A stretch of 64,000 bases of DNA, from contig CAXXHB010000002.1 in assembly GCA_963664815.2 (NCBI GenBank), positions 256,001-320,000 of the forward strand. The letters are read 5' to 3'. Position 1 is the first letter of the stretch. Each line of letters starts with the position of its first letter. This document shows positions 43,379 to 55,558 of the stretch, piece after piece. This DNA comes from Spirochaetota bacterium (GTDB taxonomy: Bacteria; Spirochaetota; UBA4802; UBA5550). The position numbers and the translations under genes were made by a program. The notes beneath the pieces were generated by a model. The model searched no databases, was not told where the DNA came from, and was given only the letters and a program-made list of their open reading frames with translations.

Positions 43379-43701
43379 TGAAGGTAGAGCTATCTACAAT
43401 AGCCGGTCATGCATCATAGAACATATATTCGGAGAAATAAATGAGTATAAACATTTCCGGAGATTCTATCATCGTGGACTGGAAAAGGTTAACACAATCC
43501 GGGCTATTTTCTGTAATGCTCATAATTTCCATAAGCTTGCCCGGCTGGAATACAGATTATAATTAAATAAATTAAAATATTCCCGAAGACATAGGATCTT
43601 CGGGATACATACAGGATTGTCAAAATAAAATCAGAGGATATTCAGTCGATATTATTTTAGACTACTCCATTTTTTTAATAAGCTACTTTTTCAACAGACT
43701 C
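43379..43701 (+). mobile_element. IS1182-family right-end remnant
   Basis: Highly similar to 53546-53874; ends tactttttcaacagactc followed by CTTT-GTTATATGAA. Confidence 0.85.
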
Positions 43702-43730
43702 CTTTGTTATATGAAGTCGCCTGACTTTTT

Positions 43731-44099
43731 TTAAGAATTTTTAGTCAGAGTCCCTTGATGAAAAATCATTTTCCATTTATCATCCTTGTATTTCCATACC
43801 GAACTTCGAATTGAATATTTTTGTTCAAGATTAATTTCAGAATGCTTAATTAGTTTATATGTTGCTAAAACTATAAAATCAGATAATTGTTTAATCGAAA
43901 AATCAATTATTTCCCAATTAATTTTTGGAGAAATGAAAGTATCTCCTTTTTTGTAATGATATATTTTCCCATTGCTAGAAAATTCAATAAGTTCATCATC
44001 AATTATTTCATTTAATTTTTGTTCTGATTCTCTAGTCTCAGATTTTAATAATTGATTTTCTAAATAAAGTATTTCTTTTTCAATTGTTTTTATATTCAT
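43731..44099 (-). CDS. DUF4440 / NTF2-like protein (putative cassette gene)
   Basis: EFSSNG, SIRSSVW..WKMIFHQGT; followed by TTCATATAAC inverse-core. Confidence 0.8.
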   Translation of the reverse strand: MNIKTIEKEILYLENQLLKSETRESEQKLNEIIDDELIEFSSNGKIYHYKKGDTFISPKINWEIIDFSIKQLSDFIVLATYKLIKHSEINLEQKYSIRSSVWKYKDDKWKMIFHQGTLTKNS

Positions 44100-44132
44100 G
44101 ACGATCTTGGCTTTTCATTAAGTTTAAAAATC

Positions 44133-44709
44133 TGTACAACCCGACGACATCGGTAACACTCTACTGTGCTTTCTGTACCTTTGTACCATCTGTTTTATAA
44201 ATAATCAAGCCGGTTATTTTATCCAGAACACCTATCATAAAATCATCAAACCATATGTCCAGTTCACCCTGGTTTTCTTTTATGCCAACATTATAACCGG
44301 CAAAAGGATTATCTACAAATAATCTCTTACCACTGTAATTGCAGAATCCGCAATCATTTACCATGCGACTTTTATAACCCTTGCCATAAACGATCAACAC
44401 ATCTTCCGGCTCGTAAACTCTACCGGACTTTACATATACATCAACCGGTCTTTTCATATCCAATGCTTCATGGGGACTAATTGTATTAAAGTCTTCACGC
44501 CACTTATCAAACACTCTCTGATGTTCATTCAGATTACCATCTATCTGCCCTTCGAGCTCTGCTTTCATATCACGATACATCCTCTCATGTCCGCCATTCT
44601 GATACGGGCATCCGGGATCGATACGGTCCAGTTTTATCCCCAGCGACATCCACCAAACTGATAGTTTACTCAGTCCGAATACATTGCCACCAGGGCCGCT
44701 CCTTTGCAT
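44133..44709 (-). mobile_element. IS481-family transposase 3' remnant with right end
   Basis: LSVWW..LGI..RIDPGCPYQNGGHERM, PHEALDM; TGT terminus at 44133. Confidence 0.8.
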
Positions 44710-44757
44710 CCGTGCAACCGCGGCACTACGACATCCATGTCGGACATATTTCTACAG

Positions 44758-45173
44758 TAGTCAGATAGTGGAGGTGAACCACCACAAAAAAACCGTTACC
44801 TTTCGGTATAAGAAGAGAATGGGTAGGAGATCAGAAAGAAGCATTACACCACTGAAACTATAAGCATATATGAATTTATAGCGCGTATGCTCTTCTTTTT
44901 GCCCGATAAACACCGTAAAATACTTCGCTACTACGTGATATATGCCCATAGTATAGAAAAGAAACTGGACAAAATTGAGCGAATCACCTGGTCAAAGGCC
45001 ATTGAGCATTCATTTGAAAAAATCCTGAAAAATGCCCGGCATATTCGTCTCATATGGTGAAGGATGTTGTATTTTCTTTTTATGCGGATAAAGAGATTAA
45101 GAGACTAATAACAACCCATGCTATTAGCAAAGGAAATTTTATACCCTATAAGAAAAAGGCACAGCCATCGTAA
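44758..45173 (+). pseudogene. IS91-family (Y2/HUH) transposase C-terminal remnant
   Basis: VTFRYK, EFIARMLFFLPDKHRKILRYY, WSKAIEHSF..NPEKCP across two frameshifts; not in ORF track. Confidence 0.7.
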
Positions 45174-45299
45174 TTGCGAACGCAGGTTTGCTGAAGTTGA
45201 CAAAAAGAACTTGACTATGTTTCAAATTGGAAGATATATTTTCTCGATAGAAACGAGGTATACGTGAACATGAAATTTCGCGCGATTTTTGGCGCGAAA

Positions 45300-45485
45300 T
45301 TTTAACAACTCATTGCTATGAGGGACTTTTTTCTGCTGAATGAACCTTGTGGTGATACCGATAAGGCCGATTCTATCCCATTACGTAGGTTTCTCATGAG
45401 ACATCTGGTATCCTTTTTCACCCTTCTTGTCATTCCTTTTTCTCTAGTGTCGGCGGACTTTCCTACAACAATGAGAATGTTGTAG
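45300..45485 (+). other. attC-like inverted repeat (candidate)
   Basis: AACaactcattgctatgagg pairs with cctacaacaatgagaatGTT; preceded by 11-bp hairpin 45273-45302. Confidence 0.45.
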
Positions 45486-45545
45486 ACTGAAACGCAGTTT
45501 TATAACCAACCATAAATTTTAAAAATATGTACGTAGGTAATTGAA

Positions 45546-46169
45546 ATGAATCATACTAAAGATCTTTTTGAAAAAGAATATGAAAAACCCATTGCACGTT
45601 GGACAAACGAAAATCCCCCACAAGAACTTACAGAGTTAATTGATTCTGAAATAATTAAACCTTGCAAAACTCTTGATATTGGATGCGGAGAAGGCTTTTA
45701 TTCTATTTATCTCGCAAAAAGAGGTTTTGAAGTCGTCGGAATAGACCTTTCAGAAAAGGCAATAGAATACGCAAAGAAAAATGCGAATGAAAATGGAGTG
45801 AATGTAAAATTCATTGCAATGAATGTAAAAAACTTGAACAAGTTGGATGAAAAGTTCGATTTTGTTTTTGAGTGGGCGTTTCTGCATTGCATAACAAAGC
45901 CCAAAGAAAGAGAAGAGTATATAGAAAAGGTGAGCAAACTATTAAATAAAGGTGGAAAATATTTTTCGATTTGTTTTAATGAAGATCAATTCAAAGAGAT
46001 CCCGGAAGAATCCAAGAAAGCCCTCGGATCAATATTATATTTTTCATCATTAAATGAACTTAAGAAATTATTCAGTTCTTATTTTAAGACAATAGAAAGT
46101 AAAGTAGTTGAAATTGTTGTATCCGGGAAAAAATTCATTTGGAACTATTTCCTGATGGAGAAAAAATAG
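45546..46169 (+). CDS. Class I SAM-dependent methyltransferase
   Basis: LDIGCGEG, GIDLS, FDFVFE, LNKGG. Confidence 0.9.
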   Translation: MNHTKDLFEKEYEKPIARWTNENPPQELTELIDSEIIKPCKTLDIGCGEGFYSIYLAKRGFEVVGIDLSEKAIEYAKKNANENGVNVKFIAMNVKNLNKLDEKFDFVFEWAFLHCITKPKEREEYIEKVSKLLNKGGKYFSICFNEDQFKEIPEESKKALGSILYFSSLNELKKLFSSYFKTIESKVVEIVVSGKKFIWNYFLMEKK

Positions 46170-46178
46170 GTAAGTTTT

Positions 46179-46227
46179 ATATAACGTTAAGACATGCTTA
46201 ATACAAGCAGTGCATCGCCTGTTATAT
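46179..46227 (+). other. Short attC-like site
   Basis: ATATAAC..tgcttaatacaagca..GTTATAT, 9 bp after stop codon. Confidence 0.5.
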
Positions 46228-46794
46228 GCCGGCAGGTGGTCACTGAGCCTGCAAACGTACTGTTTGCTCAACATAACCGCCTGAGCAGTAACACGATATA
46301 ATATTAATGGATTTTAAATTACCGGATTTATAATTGCAATAATAATTCGTATGTAGAAATTTGAATAAATAAACAATTGCATCTTTATAACAACCAATAT
46401 ATCTGCTTTTAAATTATTGTTAAACGATACTTTCCGGAATAAATTATCAGTATTTTTCAGTTATCAGAATAAAAGTATACCTTCATGATCTTTTTATAGT
46501 TCCATAATCATAGTATTAATATATAGATAATAATCTACAACCGCTCCGGTTCGCTGGAGGTGAACTGTATAGTACCGGTTCAGGAATCTCCTTTAAAATA
46601 ATGTTTATTATATTTAACTGATGTCAGCATTATAAATAATCGAATTGTGTTGAAAACTACCTTATGACAAATTCACATTTTAGATACAAAATAAAACTTT
46701 CCGCCAAATGATAAACAGAAGCTCTCAAGATGCAATTTACCCTGCAATCAACGAGCCTCATCAAATCTTTGTTTAACATTTTCCACCTTTACTA

Positions 46795-48027
46795 CTATTT
46801 ATTTGACCATTCGCTATTGTATAGCAGACCATCATCAATACTGCTTTTTATATTATTTTTAAAAGGTGACAAAAGATATGTAATGAAAAGTAGACAAATT
46901 ACTGCTGAAATACCGGCGAATATCAGAACCAGTGCCACGCCTAATTTTTCTGCCATATACCCTCCAATCAGCATAGAGCAGATACCTGCAGGTGTTAATA
47001 ATCCCAAAACAGAACCATATACACTTCCCCTGATAGATGCCTGAGTAGACTGATCTCTTAATGTATGAATACTGACCAATGCTGCATAAAAGACTGCAAA
47101 GGAAAGCATTACAATCAGGCATGCAAGGTAATAATTTTTAATCAGCCCTAACGCAGCAAAGGAGGTAAAATGTATTAACAATCCCCATAATATAATCTGA
47201 TTGTTCTTCCTCTTTTTTGCAAGCCAGGGTCCTGCCAGGCTTCCGGCAATACTCCCCAGCCCTATCAGCGTCATAAAAAATCCATATTGACTATCATTTC
47301 CGGCAAGAAACGTTTTCACATAGATTATAAAAAGTGAAACCTGCAATCCAAGGAAGAGCCGCCATGTGACTCCGACATATACCAAGTATTTCAAATAATT
47401 ATTATCTTTTATATATTTGAACCCGTCCGGGATTTTTTTCATTGGATTTATTTTTTCTGCAGTAACATTTATTTTTTCCGATTTAATAAAGCAGCTCATT
47501 ACAGCTGTGACTATATATATAATACAAGTAGCATACAATAATACATTAATCTGAAATTTCAGAACAACAAGACCTCCTATCAATGGCGCCAAGAGCTTTG
47601 CCGCATTCAGTAATATTAATATAACGGAGTTACCTGTGTGATATTTTTCTGCAGGTATAATCTCTGCAATTAACGTACCTCTTACATTCATTATGAAGGT
47701 AAGCATTATTGAAATACAAAACCAGAGGGCGTAAACTTCAGATATATTATTCACCAATGACAGGAAAAACAGCATTACTGATGTAGCCAAGGCAATAATG
47801 CGCAGTACATTGAGTCTACTAAATCTGTCTGCTATTGCACCACAGACCGGTGAAAAGAATCTTGGTAAATATGTCAGCACAGCAAATAGACTTACATTTA
47901 ATGCGCTCTTTGTGATATCATATACATGCACTGTCATGATAAAGAATATAAACTCATATCCAAAGGCTGACAGGACATATGTAACAAAGAAATTATTTAC
48001 ATTTTGTTTCTTCGTGATTTGTTTCAT
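46795..48027 (-). CDS. MFS transporter (macrolide-efflux/DHA3-like)
   Basis: ~12 hydrophobic segments, GAIADRFSR motif A, RGSVYG. Confidence 0.88.
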   Translation of the reverse strand: MKQITKKQNVNNFFVTYVLSAFGYEFIFFIMTVHVYDITKSALNVSLFAVLTYLPRFFSPVCGAIADRFSRLNVLRIIALATSVMLFFLSLVNNISEVYALWFCISIMLTFIMNVRGTLIAEIIPAEKYHTGNSVILILLNAAKLLAPLIGGLVVLKFQINVLLYATCIIYIVTAVMSCFIKSEKINVTAEKINPMKKIPDGFKYIKDNNYLKYLVYVGVTWRLFLGLQVSLFIIYVKTFLAGNDSQYGFFMTLIGLGSIAGSLAGPWLAKKRKNNQIILWGLLIHFTSFAALGLIKNYYLACLIVMLSFAVFYAALVSIHTLRDQSTQASIRGSVYGSVLGLLTPAGICSMLIGGYMAEKLGVALVLIFAGISAVICLLFITYLLSPFKNNIKSSIDDGLLYNSEWSNK

Positions 48028-48032
48028 ATAGC

Positions 48033-48140
48033 TTACACTCTTAATTGTGATAAAAAGGGATTACTGCTACTTGGCTCTACACAATGAAAGCTTGAAAAAC
48101 AGTGTACTAAAACCTTTTCTTTGATTACTTGCTTTTTCAT
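48033..48140 (-). CDS. 35-aa small ORF upstream of the MFS gene
   Basis: GGAGG RBS; MKKQVIKEKVLVHCFSSFHCVEPSSSNPFLSQLRV*; stop 5 bp before MFS ATG. Confidence 0.5.
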   Translation of the reverse strand: MKKQVIKEKVLVHCFSSFHCVEPSSSNPFLSQLRV

Positions 48141-48263
48141 AATTCCTCCATTTTTCCTGCAATTCTTTGTTTACATTTATACCAATCGAAATTATCAGGT
48201 CAACAGAACGAATTGATGTGTTATATCGTAGTTTCCGATATGATGCTTTATTGGAGTATTTAC

Positions 48264-48550
48264 GTGGATTTTAAACAGCTTTACACATAGGGCTATTGCA
48301 ACGCTTTGAAGCTTTAATCAAGCCGCAGACACACTTGATTATGCGTAGTCGACAGTGTCAGAGCAGATCAGGACACTTGAGACGAATTTAGGTGTTAAAC
48401 TATTTAAAAGGGACAGTAAAAAATAGCTCTCTTACTTCGGCGTGTGAACTTCTTTTACATTATGCTTAAAAAATAATAAGTCTTGAAGCGAAGAAGAGGT
48501 TAGTTCGGAATACATAGGATGCTAAGAGATATCAAACCGGCAAAATTATG
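48264..48550 (+). pseudogene. LysR regulator N-terminal remnant, divergent from MFS
   Basis: MDFKQL..SFNQAADTLDYA*STVSEQIRTLETNLGVKLFKR. Confidence 0.8.
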
Positions 48551-48603
48551 TCGGTGAAAAGCGGCAAATTCTAATTGGTGTTCACAATTATTATTTTTTC
48601 CGG

Positions 48604-48730
48604 TAAAATCACCGGATTATTACTGCATGTTATTTCAAATACCGGAAGAAAACGGTGTTCAAATCTCTATTAATACTTGTGCTGAGTATAATCGAAGTAT
48701 GTTCTGCCCGATAGCAGCGGTTTCGTCCAC
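48604..48730. repeat. ~127-bp dispersed repeat, copy A (copy B 54621-54750)
   Basis: Shared gattattactgcatgttatttcaa, accggaagaaaacggt, ttgtgctgagtataa, tgttctgcccgata. Confidence 0.85.
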
Positions 48731-48773
48731 GAGAGTACAAGGATGTACTCATGTATGATAAATGTTTATGATT

Positions 48774-49142
48774 TTAAATAAACCTATCTATTGGTACATT
48801 AAAAATTTTCGATAATTCTTTAGCATTCTGTTTACTGATAGCCCTTGTTCCTCTTTCCATATGAGATATGTTTTGCTTAGAGATTCCTCCAAGTTTTTCT
48901 CCTAATTCTTCCTGTGTCATTTTATGGATTTCACGATAAATTTTCATGCTCTTACCAGGAAACATTTTACTATCAATTTCTTTGAACCAATCAGTTTCAA
49001 AGACGTCAATTAGTTCGTCTTCACTATCTTTAATCAGCTTCATTTTTTTCCCATAAACCTCTTTCAATACAGAAAGAACTTTTGGAGGTATTTCTCCTTC
49101 AATTTCGATTTTAATATGTGGCGTCTTCACGTGAGCCTGCAT
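48774..49142 (-). CDS. XRE antitoxin-like HTH protein
   Basis: MQAHVKTPH..MTQEELGEKLGGISKQNISHMERG. Confidence 0.85.
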   Translation of the reverse strand: MQAHVKTPHIKIEIEGEIPPKVLSVLKEVYGKKMKLIKDSEDELIDVFETDWFKEIDSKMFPGKSMKIYREIHKMTQEELGEKLGGISKQNISHMERGTRAISKQNAKELSKIFNVPIDRFI

Positions 49143-49200
49143 AATATACCTCAATTACAATTGAATTCTTTTCATGTTTCCAGCATGCAATCAATTTATA
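49111..49200 (-). pseudogene. RelE-like toxin 3' fragment
   Basis: YKLIACWKHEKNSIVIEVYYAGSREDATY*, truncated at an IS-end-like sequence. Confidence 0.75.
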
Positions 49201-49249
49201 CTTTTCTACAGTCTCGTTATATGAAGGCGCACCACTTTTTAAATATAAC

Positions 49250-49882
49250 TTATTTCTTAATAAACAATGTTTCTGGCATAAAATCACAACCTATCGATTC
49301 ATCAGGAATTACTGCTTGTAATCTTAAATAATTTTTATCAATTTGAAATACTAATTCTACTTTATCTTTTTTTGCAATATTAAAGTCACTACTTTTAATT
49401 TTCAATTTGATTGTTTTACCATCAACATGATATGTTCCTCTAACAATTCCAAAGCCGTGGCATAAATTAATGTAATATTTGAAGGTTTTATCTTTATAAA
49501 TAAAAAGTTGAGACGGGTTATATTTTGTCAAATCTGTAACCATTATATATTCACCAACAATTGGTACTCTTTCGTCAATTTTTATCTCAGACAAAAATCC
49601 ATCAAAAACATAACCGAGCTTATTGCCATATTGGACTTTAATCCAATTACCTGGAATCCCTTTAACAGTTACCATGTCATTGATATAGACTTTTTGTTCT
49701 ATTAGATTAATCTTTGAATTAAATGGTATAATATATAGAATTTTTGAATCAGCTGAATTATTTTTATGTAAACTAACACCAGATTTTGGTGTAACAAATA
49801 AACTTTTATTTTTTGATAACAACATAAGTGGTAATAATAAAATAAATGTAATATAAAAAATCAGAAATTTATTTCTTTTCAA
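49250..49882 (-). CDS. Exported SH3-domain protein
   Basis: Signal peptide; GNWIKVQYGNKLGYVFDGFLS. Confidence 0.8.
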   Translation of the reverse strand: MKRNKFLIFYITFILLLPLMLLSKNKSLFVTPKSGVSLHKNNSADSKILYIIPFNSKINLIEQKVYINDMVTVKGIPGNWIKVQYGNKLGYVFDGFLSEIKIDERVPIVGEYIMVTDLTKYNPSQLFIYKDKTFKYYINLCHGFGIVRGTYHVDGKTIKLKIKSSDFNIAKKDKVELVFQIDKNYLRLQAVIPDESIGCDFMPETLFIKK

Positions 49883-49929
49883 TTTTTACCCTTTAAATCC
49901 TAAATTATAATCAAATATAAAATTTATTA

Positions 49930-51060
49930 TCAAAAGAAATATCCAAAATCAATCGCAATTGTTTTAATCGAACCAGTATAAAGATCTCGCGAAATAATTT
50001 TTTTATCAACTGAATAAATTAACCAACGATCAATGATTTTATAAACAGCATAATCATCTGGTTCTAAGATTATTTGCTTATCTTTATATACATCATATAT
50101 TACTAAATAATCATCTGGTGATGAGCGACCCTCAATTTTTTTTTCTTTATTAAAAACTAAAAATCTTCCATCTTCACTAATCGTAATTCCTTGATAATCT
50201 TCATTTTCATCAGGTTGCGTTACATGATATACTTTATTTTTTCTCAAATCTAAATATTCGATCCAAGTATGTATATCTTTTAGCGGTTTAAACTGTACAT
50301 AAGCAAGAGTATTATTTCCTGATATTTTAAAACCATTTGTTAATAAAGGAAACTGTTTGAATTTTTCAAATTTATTTGTTTCAATATAATAATATGATAA
50401 ATTGTGTTCTAACCCAGAATTATCAAAATCTTCAAAATTTCTATGTATTTTTTGCATATCATAATATTTGTTATCATCTAGTTCATAACATAATATAGTG
50501 TTTGAATTTGGTACAAATTGCAGAAAGCCCCCAAGCTTCCGTATATATGTAGTTTTTTCATTTCGTGTGTTATAATAATAAAATCCCTTTTTGGGATTTA
50601 TTCTATGCAACAGTTCATTTTCTGTGCTCGGGCATTCTCTGAAATAAATAAAATAATCACCTGTATCACTCCATCCAGTTAGTAAGATTTCTGATGCAGT
50701 ATAATCGCTTGTTTCTTCATAAAATTTTTCGATAAATCGTTCTGTATTTTTCTTTAAGTTCATTATATATAAGTCATTATTCTTTAAATATGCTAAAAAC
50801 TCTCCATTTTTTGAGATTAATGGATAGCCTCTTCCTCTGAAGGCACTCATATTGCCCATGCCACTTTTACCTGCAACTATCTTATTATTTCCAAGCGCAT
50901 CTAGAATACAAATATCATCATTTTCAGCAAGATAGCATAAATATGGAATATTTTTTACTTCGGGTATTTTATCTGTAATCTGTTCAGGTAAATTTGGATT
51001 TTTACAAGATTCTAATGCCAGCATTATTAGGAGAAAAAAAATAGCTTTTATTGATTTCAT
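49930..51060 (-). CDS. Lipoprotein with TolB-like beta-propeller repeats
   Basis: MKSIK..LESC lipobox after GAGG RBS; ISKNGEFLAY, WSDTGDYFIY, ISEDGRFLVF. Confidence 0.7.
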   Translation of the reverse strand: MKSIKAIFFLLIMLALESCKNPNLPEQITDKIPEVKNIPYLCYLAENDDICILDALGNNKIVAGKSGMGNMSAFRGRGYPLISKNGEFLAYLKNNDLYIMNLKKNTERFIEKFYEETSDYTASEILLTGWSDTGDYFIYFRECPSTENELLHRINPKKGFYYYNTRNEKTTYIRKLGGFLQFVPNSNTILCYELDDNKYYDMQKIHRNFEDFDNSGLEHNLSYYYIETNKFEKFKQFPLLTNGFKISGNNTLAYVQFKPLKDIHTWIEYLDLRKNKVYHVTQPDENEDYQGITISEDGRFLVFNKEKKIEGRSSPDDYLVIYDVYKDKQIILEPDDYAVYKIIDRWLIYSVDKKIISRDLYTGSIKTIAIDFGYFF

Positions 51061-51129
51061 ATTATTCAATCCTCTATTTTTTAGTTCAATAATAAGTATA
51101 TTTAAATCTAAATTTTGTAGCACGATTTT

Positions 51130-51232
51130 GTTCAACGCCTAGCTTACGCAAAGTTGGCCGAAGGCCAATTTGCCGAGCCTGTTTCTCAAGTCAAGTGCCA
51201 AGGAGCGAAAGCGACGCAGCGCCGTAAGTTTT
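51130..51232 (-). other. attC site, major part (remainder at 53875-53885)
   Basis: GC-rich imperfect palindrome; minus strand ends cgtaagct aggc GTTGAAC; restored arms AGCTTACG/CGTAAGCT. Confidence 0.75.
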
Positions 51233-51429
51233 GAGTCTAACGCAAAAATAAATATTAATTTACTGTCAACACACAGGATGTGAATAATATCAATCATCTT
51301 TTAAAAAAAGGATAAAGATATGAATGCACGCTACCACTCATACACTCCAGACCAGCTCTTTATATGATCTTCCCCTGATATAGTGGACATTAAGTTAAGC
51401 CGAAAATATAATAAATTTGGAGGCTTACA

Positions 51430-51720
51430 ATGTCAGAGAGAAGTAAATACAGCCCGGAATTTAAGAAAGAGGCTGTAGAATTATTAAGAACCAGCGGAAA
51501 GACATCACTTGAAATAGCGAATGATCTTGGGATTAAAAGAGATAATCTATTGCGCTGGAATAGGGAAATTGAAACAGAGGAAAGGAATTCCGGGACAATA
51601 ACAATAAATCCTCAGGATAGTGAAGAAATTAAACGACTCAAGAAGGAAATGTTGATTCTTAAGCAGGAGCGTGACATTCTAAAAAAGGCTCTGGGCATAT
51701 TCTCGAAACCACAAGAATGA
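51430..51720 (+). CDS. IS3 transposase OrfA
   Basis: Identical translation to 36552-36842. Confidence 0.95.
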   Translation: MSERSKYSPEFKKEAVELLRTSGKTSLEIANDLGIKRDNLLRWNREIETEERNSGTITINPQDSEEIKRLKKEMLILKQERDILKKALGIFSKPQE

Positions 51721-52586
51721 AATATGAATTCATCAAGGAACAGAGTACTGAATTTCCAGTATCGAGGATATGCCAGATTATGGATGTGAGTAAAAGCGGT
51801 TATTATGCCTGGCTGAAAGCTCCAAAGAGTATAAGAGGGCTTGAAAATGAAATACTATTGGAGAGGATAAAATCATCACATGAATCAAGCGGAGAGAGCT
51901 ATGGCAGCCCCAGAATTCATCAGGATTTACTTGAAGAAGGTATTTTCTGCGGAATACATAGGGTTGAGAGGCTGATGAATGTGAATGGGATTCATGCAAA
52001 GACAAAGAAAAAATTTAAGGCAACCACTGATTCGGGTCATTCTTTGCCAGTGTCTGAGAATATACTAGACAGGAATTTTACTGTTGAAGAGAAAGATAAA
52101 GTATATGTGTCAGATATAACCTATATCTGGACATTAGAAGGCTGGCTGTATTTATGTATAGTAATGGATTTATTTTCCAGAATGATAGTCGGATGGTCAA
52201 TGGCAAATCATATGAGAGCTGAACTTGTTGAAGATGCTTTTAACATGGCCTGTATGAGAAGAAATCCGGGCCCTGGCCTGATATTCCATTCTGATAGAGG
52301 TAAACAATATGCCAGCAAATCCTTCAGGGAATTACTTGAATCAAAGAAATGTATTCAGAGTATGAGCAGGAATGGCAATTGCTGGGATAATGCCTGTGCT
52401 GAATCTTTATTTCATTCGATGAAAACAGAAGAATTTTATTTTAATATTTACAAAACAAGGAATGAGGCTAAGAGAAGTATCTTTAGATATATTGAAATAT
52501 TTTATAACCGTAAAAGAAGGCATTCACATCTGGGTTATAAAAGTCCGGAGATTTTTGAAAGATTAAATCTTAAAATAATGGCTTAA
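51717..52586 (+). CDS. IS3 transposase OrfB (DDE)
   Basis: Identical translation to 35686-36555. Confidence 0.95.
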   Translation: MKYEFIKEQSTEFPVSRICQIMDVSKSGYYAWLKAPKSIRGLENEILLERIKSSHESSGESYGSPRIHQDLLEEGIFCGIHRVERLMNVNGIHAKTKKKFKATTDSGHSLPVSENILDRNFTVEEKDKVYVSDITYIWTLEGWLYLCIVMDLFSRMIVGWSMANHMRAELVEDAFNMACMRRNPGPGLIFHSDRGKQYASKSFRELLESKKCIQSMSRNGNCWDNACAESLFHSMKTEEFYFNIYKTRNEAKRSIFRYIEIFYNRKRRHSHLGYKSPEIFERLNLKIMA

Positions 52587-53986
52587 CAAAGTGTCCATTT
52601 TTTCGGGGGAACATCAATAGTCCAGATAAATCCTGAAGAAATCCACAGACATAATTCTCTTGTATCTGCAATAGATGACTTTGTCAAAAACATGTCTCAT
52701 TATCACCATTTTCAGCAAAATATGCCAACAGCTTAAACGGAGCTCCGGCTATTCATGCCGGGATGATGCTTAAAGTAATTTTTTATTGTTTCGCTACATG
52801 AAGTTACAGTTCAAGAGAGATCGAAAGGAGAACTAACTGGGATCAGAATGTAATTTACCTTTCCGGTGACAGCTCAGTAGATCATAGTACAATCTGCCGT
52901 TTTATAGAAAAATATCCGGAAGAGATAACAAATGTATTTTCACGAATGGTATATGTACTTAAAAAGATGGGTTTAATAAATTATGATATTGTTGCAATTG
53001 ACGGTAGTAAAATTCAGGGATACGGGAGCAAAGAGTTTACAGGTAACATAAAGGAATTTAAAGAGCAGAAGAGACGTATAGAAAAAAAGATTTCAATACT
53101 TCTGAACAATACAACAAACGATATTTCGCTGCCGGAAAAGAAACTTAAGCGTTGGGAATATAATCTTGAAAAAATAACATCTTTTCTTGCTGACGTAGAA
53201 AATTCAGATAATAACGATTATGAACATACACGCATTAATCTGACAGACCGCAATGCAAGACTTTTGAAGGACAGTGGCCGAATTTATCTGGGTTATAACT
53301 GTCAGACAGCAGCCATTGGGGAAAATAATATAATTGTCGGGTACCAGGTAACTAATAATGCCAGTGACAAGTCTCAACTGGTCCCGATGATAGATGAAGT
53401 AAAAAAACATCAGAATGACCACAGCATTGAAATGAAAGTAGTCGTTGATGCGGGATACTTCACTTCCGAAAATATCGAATATGCAGAAGAAAATGCCATA
53501 ACAATTTCAGGGCAGGAACAGGATGAAGAGTAAACTATTGAGTCCTGAAGGTAGAGCTATCTACAATAACCGGTCATGCATCATGGAACATGGAACATAT
53601 ATTCGGAGAAATAAAGGAGTATAAACATTTCCGGAGATTCTATCACCGTGGACTGGAAAAGGTTAACACAATATGGTCTCTTATCTGTATTGCTCATAAT
53701 TTCCGGAAGTTCGCCCGGCTGGAAGACAGATTATAATTAAATAAATTAAAATATTCCCAAAGACACACGATCTTCGGGATACATACAGGATTGTAAAAAT
53801 AAAATCAGAGGATATTCAGCCGATATTATTTTAAACTACGTATTTTTTTAATATGTTACTTTTGCGACAGACTCCTTTGTTATCGGCTGTTGACCCGCCC
53901 CTTATTATCTTTTTCGTATAAATTTGTTCAAGTGGAAAACGATGTCGAGCCTGAATAATTCAGATATAAATATTTTTGTAAATCTG

Positions 53987-54307
53987 CTATAATCCCATTT
54001 GCAAAGCTCTTTTAATAACAGGAGCAACTGTATCATTATTTATTTTATTATTTTTACAATATTCTGAATTTATCCAGTCTGATAATTTTTTAGTTCCTTT
54101 ACTTGAATTACATGCTGAACAACATCTGGCAATATTTTCTTTTGTAATAATAGTCTGGTCATTAATTATATGTTCCCACGTTGCAGCATTTTTCCTTGAT
54201 TCTCCTCGATTTACTTTTTCAACCATTTTAATCCCACAATAAACACAGTTCTTATCTCTTATAATTATTTCTTTCTCCATTTCTTCAGGAATATTCCATC
54301 TATTCAT
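53987..54307 (-). CDS. HNH endonuclease
   Basis: RD..CVYCG, TWEHI, CCSACNSSKG. Confidence 0.88.
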   Translation of the reverse strand: MNRWNIPEEMEKEIIIRDKNCVYCGIKMVEKVNRGESRKNAATWEHIINDQTIITKENIARCCSACNSSKGTKKLSDWINSEYCKNNKINNDTVAPVIKRALQMGL

Positions 54308-54620: not shown

Positions 54621-54750
54621 TAAAATCATCAGATTATTACTGCATGTTATTTCAAGGACCGGAAGAAAACGGTATTAAAATTCCTGTCTATATTTGTGCT
54701 GAGTATAAAAACGAAGCATGTTCTGCCCGATACCAGCAGCTTCGTTCAAC
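54621..54750. repeat. Dispersed repeat, copy B
   Basis: See copy A 48604-48730. Confidence 0.85.
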
Positions 54751-54888
54751 AAAAGCCTTAAAATAGCTGTTGCCTGAAATTTCAAACATTCTGCTTAATA
54801 TTGTTATCCCGCTGATAAAGAATGGCAGTTTTTTTGGGGCAGCTACGTTAAGACTTCTATAACGTATATACAGAGCTCACCCCTGGCT

Positions 54889-55212
54889 TTATGCTTTTAA
54901 AATTATTATTTCTTCATTTTTTTTCTTTTTATCTAATGGAAATGCTTTTATTTCTATACCAAGTCCAAGATTATGAAGATATTCAATTAACGTTGAAATT
55001 TTCATATCTTTTCTCGTTTCCAGTTTTGATACACTTGATTGAGAAAAAGATTTTATATCTTCTTGTCTTATTCCTCTTTTTTCTCTAATTTCAGAAAGAC
55101 GAATCTGTAATATTTCTTTTTCTGCTTCTTTGTATGCTTTTTTAATTCTCTTTTCTGGTAATGTAGAAGCTAATTCATCAATGAAATCATTTTTCTTTTT
55201 TGTTGTTTTCAT
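54889..55212 (-). CDS. XRE/HigA-like antitoxin
   Basis: LSEIREKRGIRQ..SQSSVSKLETRKDMKISTL. Confidence 0.85.
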   Translation of the reverse strand: MKTTKKKNDFIDELASTLPEKRIKKAYKEAEKEILQIRLSEIREKRGIRQEDIKSFSQSSVSKLETRKDMKISTLIEYLHNLGLGIEIKAFPLDKKKKNEEIIILKA

Positions 55213-55558
55213 TTGTTTTCCTCCTGAATTTTATGTGGTCGTTATAAAGATTATCAGCGATTGGAATCATTTTCTCATAAAATCTTTTATCACCGCGTTT
55301 ATCTCCTCCAATCAGAAGAATTGCTTTTTGATCTAAATCAAATACAAAAAATATTCGAAATAACCTCATTTTGTTTTGAGCCCGTAATTCTTTCATGTTT
55401 TTATGTCGGCTTTGTTTTATGGTACCAACATATGGTCTTCCGAGATTAGGTCCAATCTCTTTTAAAATAATAAGATTTTTCAATATAGCTTCACGAGCAT
55501 CATCATCAAGAGCGGTTGTCAATTCGGCTAATTGATCTGTTCTTTCTTTTTCCCACAT
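55187..55558 (-). CDS. HigB/Gp49-like (RelE superfamily) toxin
   Basis: GPNLGRPY, NMKELR, AILLIGGDK. Confidence 0.88.
   Translation of the reverse strand: MWEKERTDQLAELTTALDDDAREAILKNLIILKEIGPNLGRPYVGTIKQSRHKNMKELRAQNKMRLFRIFFVFDLDQKAILLIGGDKRGDKRFYEKMIPIADNLYNDHIKFRRKTNENNKKEK

Follow-up and report, generated by a model that had tools for sequence, protein, structure and literature searches.

An IS1182-family insertion sequence lineage that appears to integrate in a single orientation into attC-like cassette sites of a Spirochaetota bacterium

Targeting of attC, the recombination site of integron cassettes, is known already from IS1111-attC elements and group IIC-attC introns, and palindrome targeting is known from members of the IS1182 family of insertion sequences (IS). 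The subject of this report is an IS1182-family element whose relic occupies positions 51233-53874 of a 64,000-nt stretch of a Spirochaetota genome (the window, C2:256001-320000; the genome, G000, has 3 contigs and 5.2 Mb) and whose lineage, here labelled type A, appears to combine both habits, a combination that was not found in print.

According to the available portions of two descriptions (PMC3001079, PMC11187229), IS1111-attC elements (ISPa21, ISPst6, ISKpn4) likewise enter attC at a single position close to its 5' (R''/L'') end, always oriented the same way and antisense to the cassette genes. These elements use a DEDD transposase of the IS110/IS1111 type guided by a seekRNA, and have subterminal repeats and no classical duplication, whereas the element described here has a DDE transposase of the IS1182 family, terminal 17-bp inverted repeats (IRs) and a 4-bp (or 3-bp) target duplication. 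Group IIC-attC introns are also attC-specialized, entering the bottom strand opposite to cassette transcription, as stated in the available part of PMC3001079; they are retroelements with a ribozyme and a reverse transcriptase, while the present element is a DNA transposon. IS1272, which shares its transposase family, chooses targets capable of forming stem-loops; the available part of PMC5678879 reports for these targets no common sequence, replacement of the stem-loop and no duplication, and credits Siguier et al. with having noted palindrome targeting in the IS1182 family. Unlike IS1272, the element studied here uses one class of site at a position fixed to an AAC/GTT triplet, leaves the site in place and duplicates 4 or 3 bp. 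No report of an attC-specific IS1182 element was found in the literature searched, including the available part of 10.1101/2025.07.22.666184, a search outside the scope of which lay ISfinder, supplements and subscription papers.

The probability that the type A lineage has attC-type recombination sites of cassettes as its specific target, and enters them in one orientation, is put at roughly 80%. The observations behind this reading concern the junctions, the duplication, the orientation, the transposase family and, for the target, its position and its attC-like architecture. The parts of the window copy and of the cassettes at its two sides are the following:

49930..51135, minus strand: first ORF (open reading frame) of the next cassette, 401 aa, starting at the R' end of the interrupted attC
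51130..51232, minus strand: body of the interrupted attC-like site, reading L''...variable centre...L'-spacer-R' (GTTGAAC, 51136-51130)
51229-51232: TTTT, the decayed left copy of the target duplication
51233..53874, plus strand: type A IS1182-family relic, with IRs GAGTCTAACGCAAAAAT (left) and ACTTTTGCGACAGACTC (right)
51365..52626, plus strand: IS3-family element nested in the relic and bordered by ATA left and right; its limits were placed by eye on the basis of its inverted repeats
51430-51720 and 51717-52586, plus strand: orfA and orfB of the IS3-family element
53875..53885, minus strand: right copy of the target duplication (CTTT, 53875-53878) and complement of R'' (GTTATCG, which is CGATAAC on the minus strand)
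53987..54307, minus strand: cassette ORF with the IS-bearing attC, 106 aa, weakly HNH-like; its stop lies 113 nt past the IS end

By sequence inspection, the element starts at 51233 (GAGTCTAACGC...) and ends at 53874 (...GCGACAGACTC). This copy of an IS1182-family DDE insertion sequence is dead: its transposase is broken by the IS3 insertion and by stops, and its length falls about 400 bp short of that of the intact relative. The sole sizeable ORF left (195 aa) matches Pfam DDE_Tnp_1 and has NF033551 (IS1182) as its best NCBIfam match at 95.9 bits; identity to the transposase of a copy on the metagenome contig L089 is 75%, with two TGA stops. The cut-off of NF033551 is 270 bits, and it is exceeded by the transposases of L089 (272.3), of a relative in G310, a genome from another family of the phylum (308.4), and of a second IS1182 lineage labelled type B (278.1). 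Intact transposases are encoded by a single ORF of ~480-500 aa with the domain order DUF772, DDE_Tnp_1 and DDE_Tnp_1_6; among PLSDB plasmids, the closest relatives reach no more than 28% identity and carry the annotation IS1182 family. The nested IS3 element, one of seven copies in G000 at 99.8-100% identity, was presumably active recently. As the original prediction had stated, the IS1182 element splits a palindrome, and excising it together with the left TTTT restores a 110-nt site with the 8-bp arms AGCTTACG/CGTAAGCT (GTTCAAC at 51130-51136, AGCTTACG at 51141-51148, CGTAAG at 51223-51228 and GTTATCG at 53879-53885).

Target duplications in the IS1182 family range from 0 to 60 bp. The window copy has TTTT at 51229-51232 on its left and CTTT at 53875-53878 on its right; all seven longer right ends in G000 are followed by [C/G]TTT and then by G(T/C)T, that is, GTT or a one-letter variant, and two short stubs (C3:3582913 and C3:1600437) by CTTTGTTATGCG and CGTTGTTATATG, flanks of the same kind, while GTAAGTTTT and GTAAGCCTT stand upstream of the two left ends. 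The intact IS of L089 (1777 bp, 483-aa transposase, perfect 17-bp IRs) has CTTT on both sides and flanks belonging to the same repeat family (...gcagcgggtaagCTTT, then the IS, then CTTTgttatatgctg), and a 615-bp derivative in G067, a genome of the same order (L114), is likewise bordered by perfect CTTT. Where uninterrupted, the ~105-nt repeat of G000 ends in GTAAGCTTTGTTAT or a similar sequence; GTAAGCTTTGTTAT is present without any IS in at least six places. Since CTTT is perfect on both sides in L089 and L114, and GTTAT is present in the uninterrupted repeat, CTTT is evidently the 4-bp target duplication and GTTAT a part of the target and not of the IS. GTT occupies positions +5 to +7 in 12 of 14 type A right junctions (nine in G000 plus L089, L090, L091, L010 and L114), against a genome-wide background of 1.6%.

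The same pattern was encountered beyond G000. A scan of the metagenome collection with an IS-only pattern returned three contigs, all real and all showing CTTTGTTA, and a protein search of 401 genomes of the phylum gave matches in 19. G310 contains an IS with the same IR as type A and a transposase 47% identical to that of L089. Six of its copies are complete (98-100% identical), a further one is split, and there is also a fragment; the six copies with both flanks all show perfect 4-bp duplications (CGCT, CCGT, CGCT, ACGT, CGCT and CCGT), GTT follows five of the seven right junctions, and a convergent ORF stop lies 29-75 nt away at five of seven. A degenerate 20-mer scan of genome contigs produced 40 stretches where ~35 were expected by chance, and 39 of these were discarded; only L051, which is the same sequence as L091, extends beyond the pattern by blast. 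The search for an orthologous empty site of the window attC found none, the cassette gene being followed in G107 (89% identity) by a different site. Minimum free energy folds of reconstructed empty sites, whose length of 147 nt is too arbitrary for them to carry information, gave z-scores from -3.4 to +0.3.

The interrupted site belongs to a repeat family of 12 members in G000 (eight intact, two partial and two split by an IS), recovered by nhmmer and by a covariance model alike, and it is itself matched by both (37.7 bits, E 9e-7). In the architecture of the family, the outer stem closes on AAC/GTT, a short spacer that does not pair separates it from a second stem (GCTTAC/GTAAGC), and the centre is variable. 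Across the eight intact sites the stems pair in 88.4% of cells, versus 30-51% with slid partners (RNAalifold and pair counts); the covariation score is 0.303 versus 0.18 in shuffles, a value reached by none of 500 shuffles, with nine pairs changed on both sides, and folds of the sites as single-stranded DNA give the same picture. Of the attC core consensus, RYYYAAC/GTTRRRY, the family shows an AAC at R'' that varies little if at all, but only a partial fit at the flanking positions and at R'. The location of these repeats is that of cassette sites: at 11 of the 12, an ORF stops 7-102 nt away on the GTTAT side, and the next ORF starts 48-480 nt past the other side. The same context holds for every IS end in G000 (10/10, with a convergent stop 6-113 nt away), which answers the concern that copies might lie outside attC surroundings. 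In addition, cassette-like units are bounded by inverted extended R boxes, GTTATATGAAGGCGGCGC/GCGCCGCTTTCATATAAC in one unit, with 17 of 18 positions complementary, and GTTAGACGACG/CGTCGTCTAAC in a second, with 11 of 11; the second site of the latter unit is a short canonical-looking hairpin, GTCTAAC...GTTGGAC (z -3.99).

Comparison with bona fide attC sites was possible through G397 and G429, which encode true IntI (384 and 380 bits) and carry related IS copies 6-24 kb away in the array. The attCs of G397, oriented by IntI and by the sense ORFs, read CATAAC-AAAGAG-TTTGAG...GCTCAA-CTCGTT-GTTATAT, and the G000 family, on the gene-sense strand, shares with them the start ATAAC-AAAG. Based on the ORF-stop census and on this comparison, the top strand is the reverse complement of the one first assumed, and the first orientation (R'' = GTTCAAC on the plus strand) was rejected. 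The original prediction was therefore correct as to the interruption and the arms but had the strand reversed, GTTAT being the complement of R'' beside a stop codon. The type A IS thus sits between the putative R'' and L'' boxes, with its transposase antisense to the cassette genes; PMC3001079 reports this end and this strand for IS1111-attC elements and group IIC-attC introns too.

These features can be assembled into a model in which the target, on the gene-sense strand, reads ...stop codon...xxATAAC (R'')-AAAG-CTTAC (start of L'')..., the IS entering the brief unpaired stretch that separates R box and L stem. The 4 bp duplicated are AAAG (CTTT on the plus strand of the window), and the right end of the IS faces R'', leaving the transposase antisense to the cassette genes. 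The transposase may read the R-box AAC/GTT triplet at a set spacing from the base of the L stem, recognizing both sequence and distorted or hairpin DNA. Combined recognition of the triplet and the L stem is proposed because the L-side sequences differ between G000 and G310 while the offset of GTT is kept, and recognition of structure because members of the IS1182 family choose stem-loop targets (available part of PMC5678879). With 1.4-1.8 kb placed between R'' and L'', folding of the site, and hence excision of the cassette, should be blocked.

Several observations weigh against this interpretation. An integron integrase gave no match over the TIGR02249 cut-off in G000, and none was found in any of the seven genomes of the genus (0/7) or in G310. 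In terms of the junctions, two of the seven G310 right junctions have GTC and CTT in place of GTT, the duplication carries one mismatch each in the window copy and in a 260-bp derivative resembling a miniature inverted-repeat transposable element (MITE), and one G310 copy at a contig end (L131, G310:C7:1-1678) is reversed, its left end lying beside CCGT-GTTATGC, with one flank only. Regarding the target, R' is GTT in six and ATT in two of the eight intact sites, the R''/R' flanks match the RYYYAAC/GTTRRRY consensus only partly (e.g., ATATAAC, GTCTAAC), and the covariance model built from the family gave no match in the arrays beside the true IntI of G039, G028 and G044. Finally, all type A copies in G000 are dead, and activity would have to be deduced from relatives.

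The best integrase candidate in G000 by TIGR02249 (126+100 bits) is a Xer-like protein. Two candidate IntI loci, C3:1972136-1973209 and C3:3696566-3697429, were rejected as Xer-like proteins without the IntI-specific segment, and one of them is the upstream ORF of an IS91-family element; a recombinase near the IS copies of G310, next to an N6 methylase gene, was likewise rejected as an integron integrase. True IntI was detected in eight of 122 genomes of the order. Because G000 is without an integron integrase, its sites look like, and are best described as, the attC sites of integrase-less clusters (CALIN-type), that is, attC-like sites. From the proposal of a DDE transposon specialized on integron recombination sites, the oriented attC-type targeting stands, whereas the sites themselves, in a genome without integrase, can be called attC-like only.

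As for general attC detection, the family-built model (R1) finds the 12 G000 members and weak relatives in G015 and G044 only, and is unfit as a general attC test. No Rfam family matched in the window. A regular-expression scan for RYYYAAC..GTTRRRY plus L boxes was dropped, having given 26 matches on C2 versus 16 in shuffled sequence and none in the window or beside true IntI, and a repeat search beside the true IntI of relatives yielded one pair of attC-like repeats, in L046, recognized by eye. Short (~65-70 nt), canonical-looking attC hairpins were observed at 46180-46245 of the window and at L024:10083-10150 (TATAAC/GTCTAAC ... GTTATAT/GTTGGAC); the former follows a methyltransferase ORF on the plus strand (45546-46169), a cassette inverted relative to its neighbours.

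Among the alternatives, the one that survives best, although it is unlikely, holds that the targets are other structured intergenic repeats of the REP-like or terminator-like kind (REP, repetitive extragenic palindrome) lying after genes, and that the IS simply follows the palindrome habit of its family. This would agree with the want of IntI in G000 and G310, with the scattering of the 12 family members outside any single dense array, with the preference of IS1272 for inverted repeats of unrelated sequence (available part of PMC5678879), and with the presence of another G000 IS1182 in GC-rich palindromic repeats. It does not account for the covarying layout of the sites, in which an R-box stem on AAC/GTT and an L stem are set apart by unpaired positions around a centre that varies, nor for cassette starts complementary to the extended R box at the far end (17/18 and 11/11). 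Moreover, the attCs beside IntI in G397, which are bona fide, have the ends ATAAC-AAAG...GTTATAT in common with these sites and are entered at the GTT by related IS; true IntI exists within the order (8/122); and insertion takes place at one exact nucleotide and duplicates 4 bp, whereas IS1272 replaces the stem-loop.

Less probable still is that the repeated junction goes back to a few old insertions copied by cassette duplication, by IntI shuffling between G and TT of the triplet, or by homologous recombination. Two IS copies in G397 do have an identical 70-nt left flank, and recombination within the triplet could place an IS half-site before different cassettes, so that differing downstream flanks alone are no proof of independent insertion. 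Conversely, six left ends stand in different attC bodies (window, MITE-like copy, L089, L114, L099 and L119), the near-identical G310 copies differ in their duplications (four) and left flanks, and the same position is used across families of the phylum and in metagenome contigs. The suspicion that CTTTGTTAT is merely a part of the IS end, without target specificity, fits its presence after nearly every right end but is already refuted, as no inverted copy of the string stands before the left IR, CTTT flanks intact copies on both sides, GTAAGCTTTGTTAT occurs without an IS in at least six places, and G310 copies with the same IR show CGCT, CCGT and ACGT duplications.

Insertion at these sites is not confined to type A, and a remnant of a further IS1182 lineage is present in the window:

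49183..49215, plus strand: end remnant (~33 nt) of a type B IS1182 element, identified by alignment with the type B ends of G007 and G006
49216..49223, minus strand: complement of R'' (GTTATATG) of the cassette holding the SH3-domain ORF 49250-49882 (minus strand), the stop of which is 35 nt from the stub

The stub had been noted before as a third IR-like end (49199-49215) abutting GTTATATGAAGG; it is real and adjoins GTTATATGAAGG directly, but it derives from a different IS1182 lineage, is not accompanied by CTTT and is offset by 4 nt from the type A insertion point. Type B elements occur in G006, G004 and G007 of the same genus, with a transposase 30% identical to that of L089 and sense to the cassettes. 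One of their ends abuts AAC-AAAG-L'' and the other GTTGTGC or GTTAGCT, which points to a 3-bp duplication of the AAC/GTT triplet.

Similar behaviour was found when an IR finder was applied to 15 further IS1182 loci: five of them (G255, G104, G429, G368 and G397) have the IR GAGNCTGTNGAA and a GTT duplication at attC-like flanks, and the other ten were unclear or different, one lying in a GC-rich hairpin. In G397, three IS copies situated 6-19 kb from intI, inside the array, stand exactly at the R' GTT (...CTCGTT GTT, the IS, GTT ATG...), all three sense to the cassettes and with the next ORF start 4-156 nt downstream. Since two of these copies have an identical 70-nt left flank, an IS-bearing cassette has been duplicated in this genome. 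In the corresponding region (L157/L158, G397:C1:2219230-2232735), a ~770-bp non-coding cassette with its IS occurs at least two times with the identical left flank; duplication of the R' GTT leaves the G/TT crossover point on both sides of the IS, suggesting that the IS may travel with the cassette.

In a maximum-likelihood tree of 28 transposases, the 4-bp type forms one starred clade (seven rows) and the GTT type another (eight rows, six of them labelled GTT-type and two for which the IR finder failed), and the two targeting clades are not sisters under the midpoint root. A search of 5.8 billion proteins gave 98 clusters at E <=1e-40, ~69 of them at >=34% identity; these clusters are all metagenomic and mostly on ~2-kb contigs. 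The second clade (type B and relatives) goes into the same sites as the first and duplicates the GTT/AAC triplet itself. A broader hypothesis, tentative and rather doubtful, is that two IS1182 clades evolved to read the R-box AAC/GTT beside the L stem, one duplicating the spacer at the R'' end and the other the GTT crossover triplet, and that a cassette moved by IntI can carry the IS along.

The remaining type A ends of G000 inform on the fate of the insertions. One of them lies in the window:

43379..43701, plus strand: solo right end of a second type A copy, with the C-terminal transposase codons and the right IR
43702..43713, minus strand: CTTT and the complement of R'' (GTTATATG), adjoining the solo right end, with CTTT-GTTAT at 43702-43710

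This diverged second right end followed by CTTT-GTTAT, proposed from the outset, was confirmed: it is 89% identical to the first right end over 330 nt, and the ORF 43731-44099 (minus strand, DUF4440) stops 30 nt past the IS end and 25 nt from the GTT. The sequence upstream of it is unrelated, and neither the left portion of the IS nor the attC body has survived. A blast search of the genome revealed no intact type A copy in G000; besides the window copy, it matched solo right ends at five loci (158-330 nt, among them the one at 43379-43701) and one 260-bp derivative, the MITE-like element at C3:3670610-3670876, which keeps both ends. Searching G000 for the 18-nt right IR with up to three edits gave 37 matches, of which the seven blast copies, the two short stubs and the window stub at 49199 are relevant; the others are taken as chance, and none shows a CTTT-GTT flank in the output. 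Surviving type A ends therefore amount to nine right and two left ones, plus a weak 41-nt match at C3:1394175, and two stubs are truncated at an identical internal position (query 1093). The excess of solo right ends may represent the remains of later one-sided deletions. The earlier suggestion that the IS freezes cassettes and seeds deletions finds only circumstantial support, in that seven of the nine right ends lack both the left end and the attC body.

Other mobile elements were observed in the surroundings of these sites. With regard to the IS91/ISCR group, an IS91-family element of G000 also ends exactly at the R'' triplet (...ttctataa directly before GTTAT); it depends on a HUH Y2 rolling-circle transposase and is separate from the IS1182 element. 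An intact IS91-family element (L024:10386-12429, G000:C3:3695386-3697429, minus strand) encodes a tyrosine recombinase of the Xer-like kind and, after it, a Y2 transposase (NF033538, 429 bits), and dozens of degenerate copies in G000 end with ...ttctataa directly against GTTAT, the R'' triplet used by IS1182. Fragments of IS91 are present in the window at 46283-46420, 48587-48760 and 54621-54862. At 54889-55558 (minus strand), two overlapping small ORFs (123 and 107 aa) resemble a toxin-antitoxin pair in layout only, and ~25 nt past the stop of this pair an IS91-like fragment stands in place of an attC. The segment L025:6556-6980 (G000:C3:1966556-1966980, minus strand) looks, by eye only, like the 3' part of a group II intron: its C-terminal ORF is maturase-like, and GAGCCGTATG...CGTACGGTTC resembles domain V. 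An IS91 fragment is joined to this segment, and the combined unit recurs at least four times. A different IS1182 of G000, with a 509-aa transposase and copies 99% identical (C3:454428-456167 and at least four more, C3:2132468, 2571719, 2784609 and C1:90786), sits in GC-rich palindromic repeats (CCCCGCACCCC...GGGGCAAAG), which are not attC-like sites, and is apparently active.

If the attC interpretation is true, nucleotide-precise and oriented attC targeting by a classical DDE transposase would constitute a third independent route to the attC niche, and would make the recognition of structured or pseudo-palindromic sites by a DDE enzyme open to study in a tractable system. It would also offer a concrete mechanism for the freezing and erosion of cassette arrays, and programs that search for attC sites will miss those split by such elements. 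Should the two-clade hypothesis hold as well, IS of this kind would be one of the main reasons why integrons in this phylum decay into attC clusters without an integrase.

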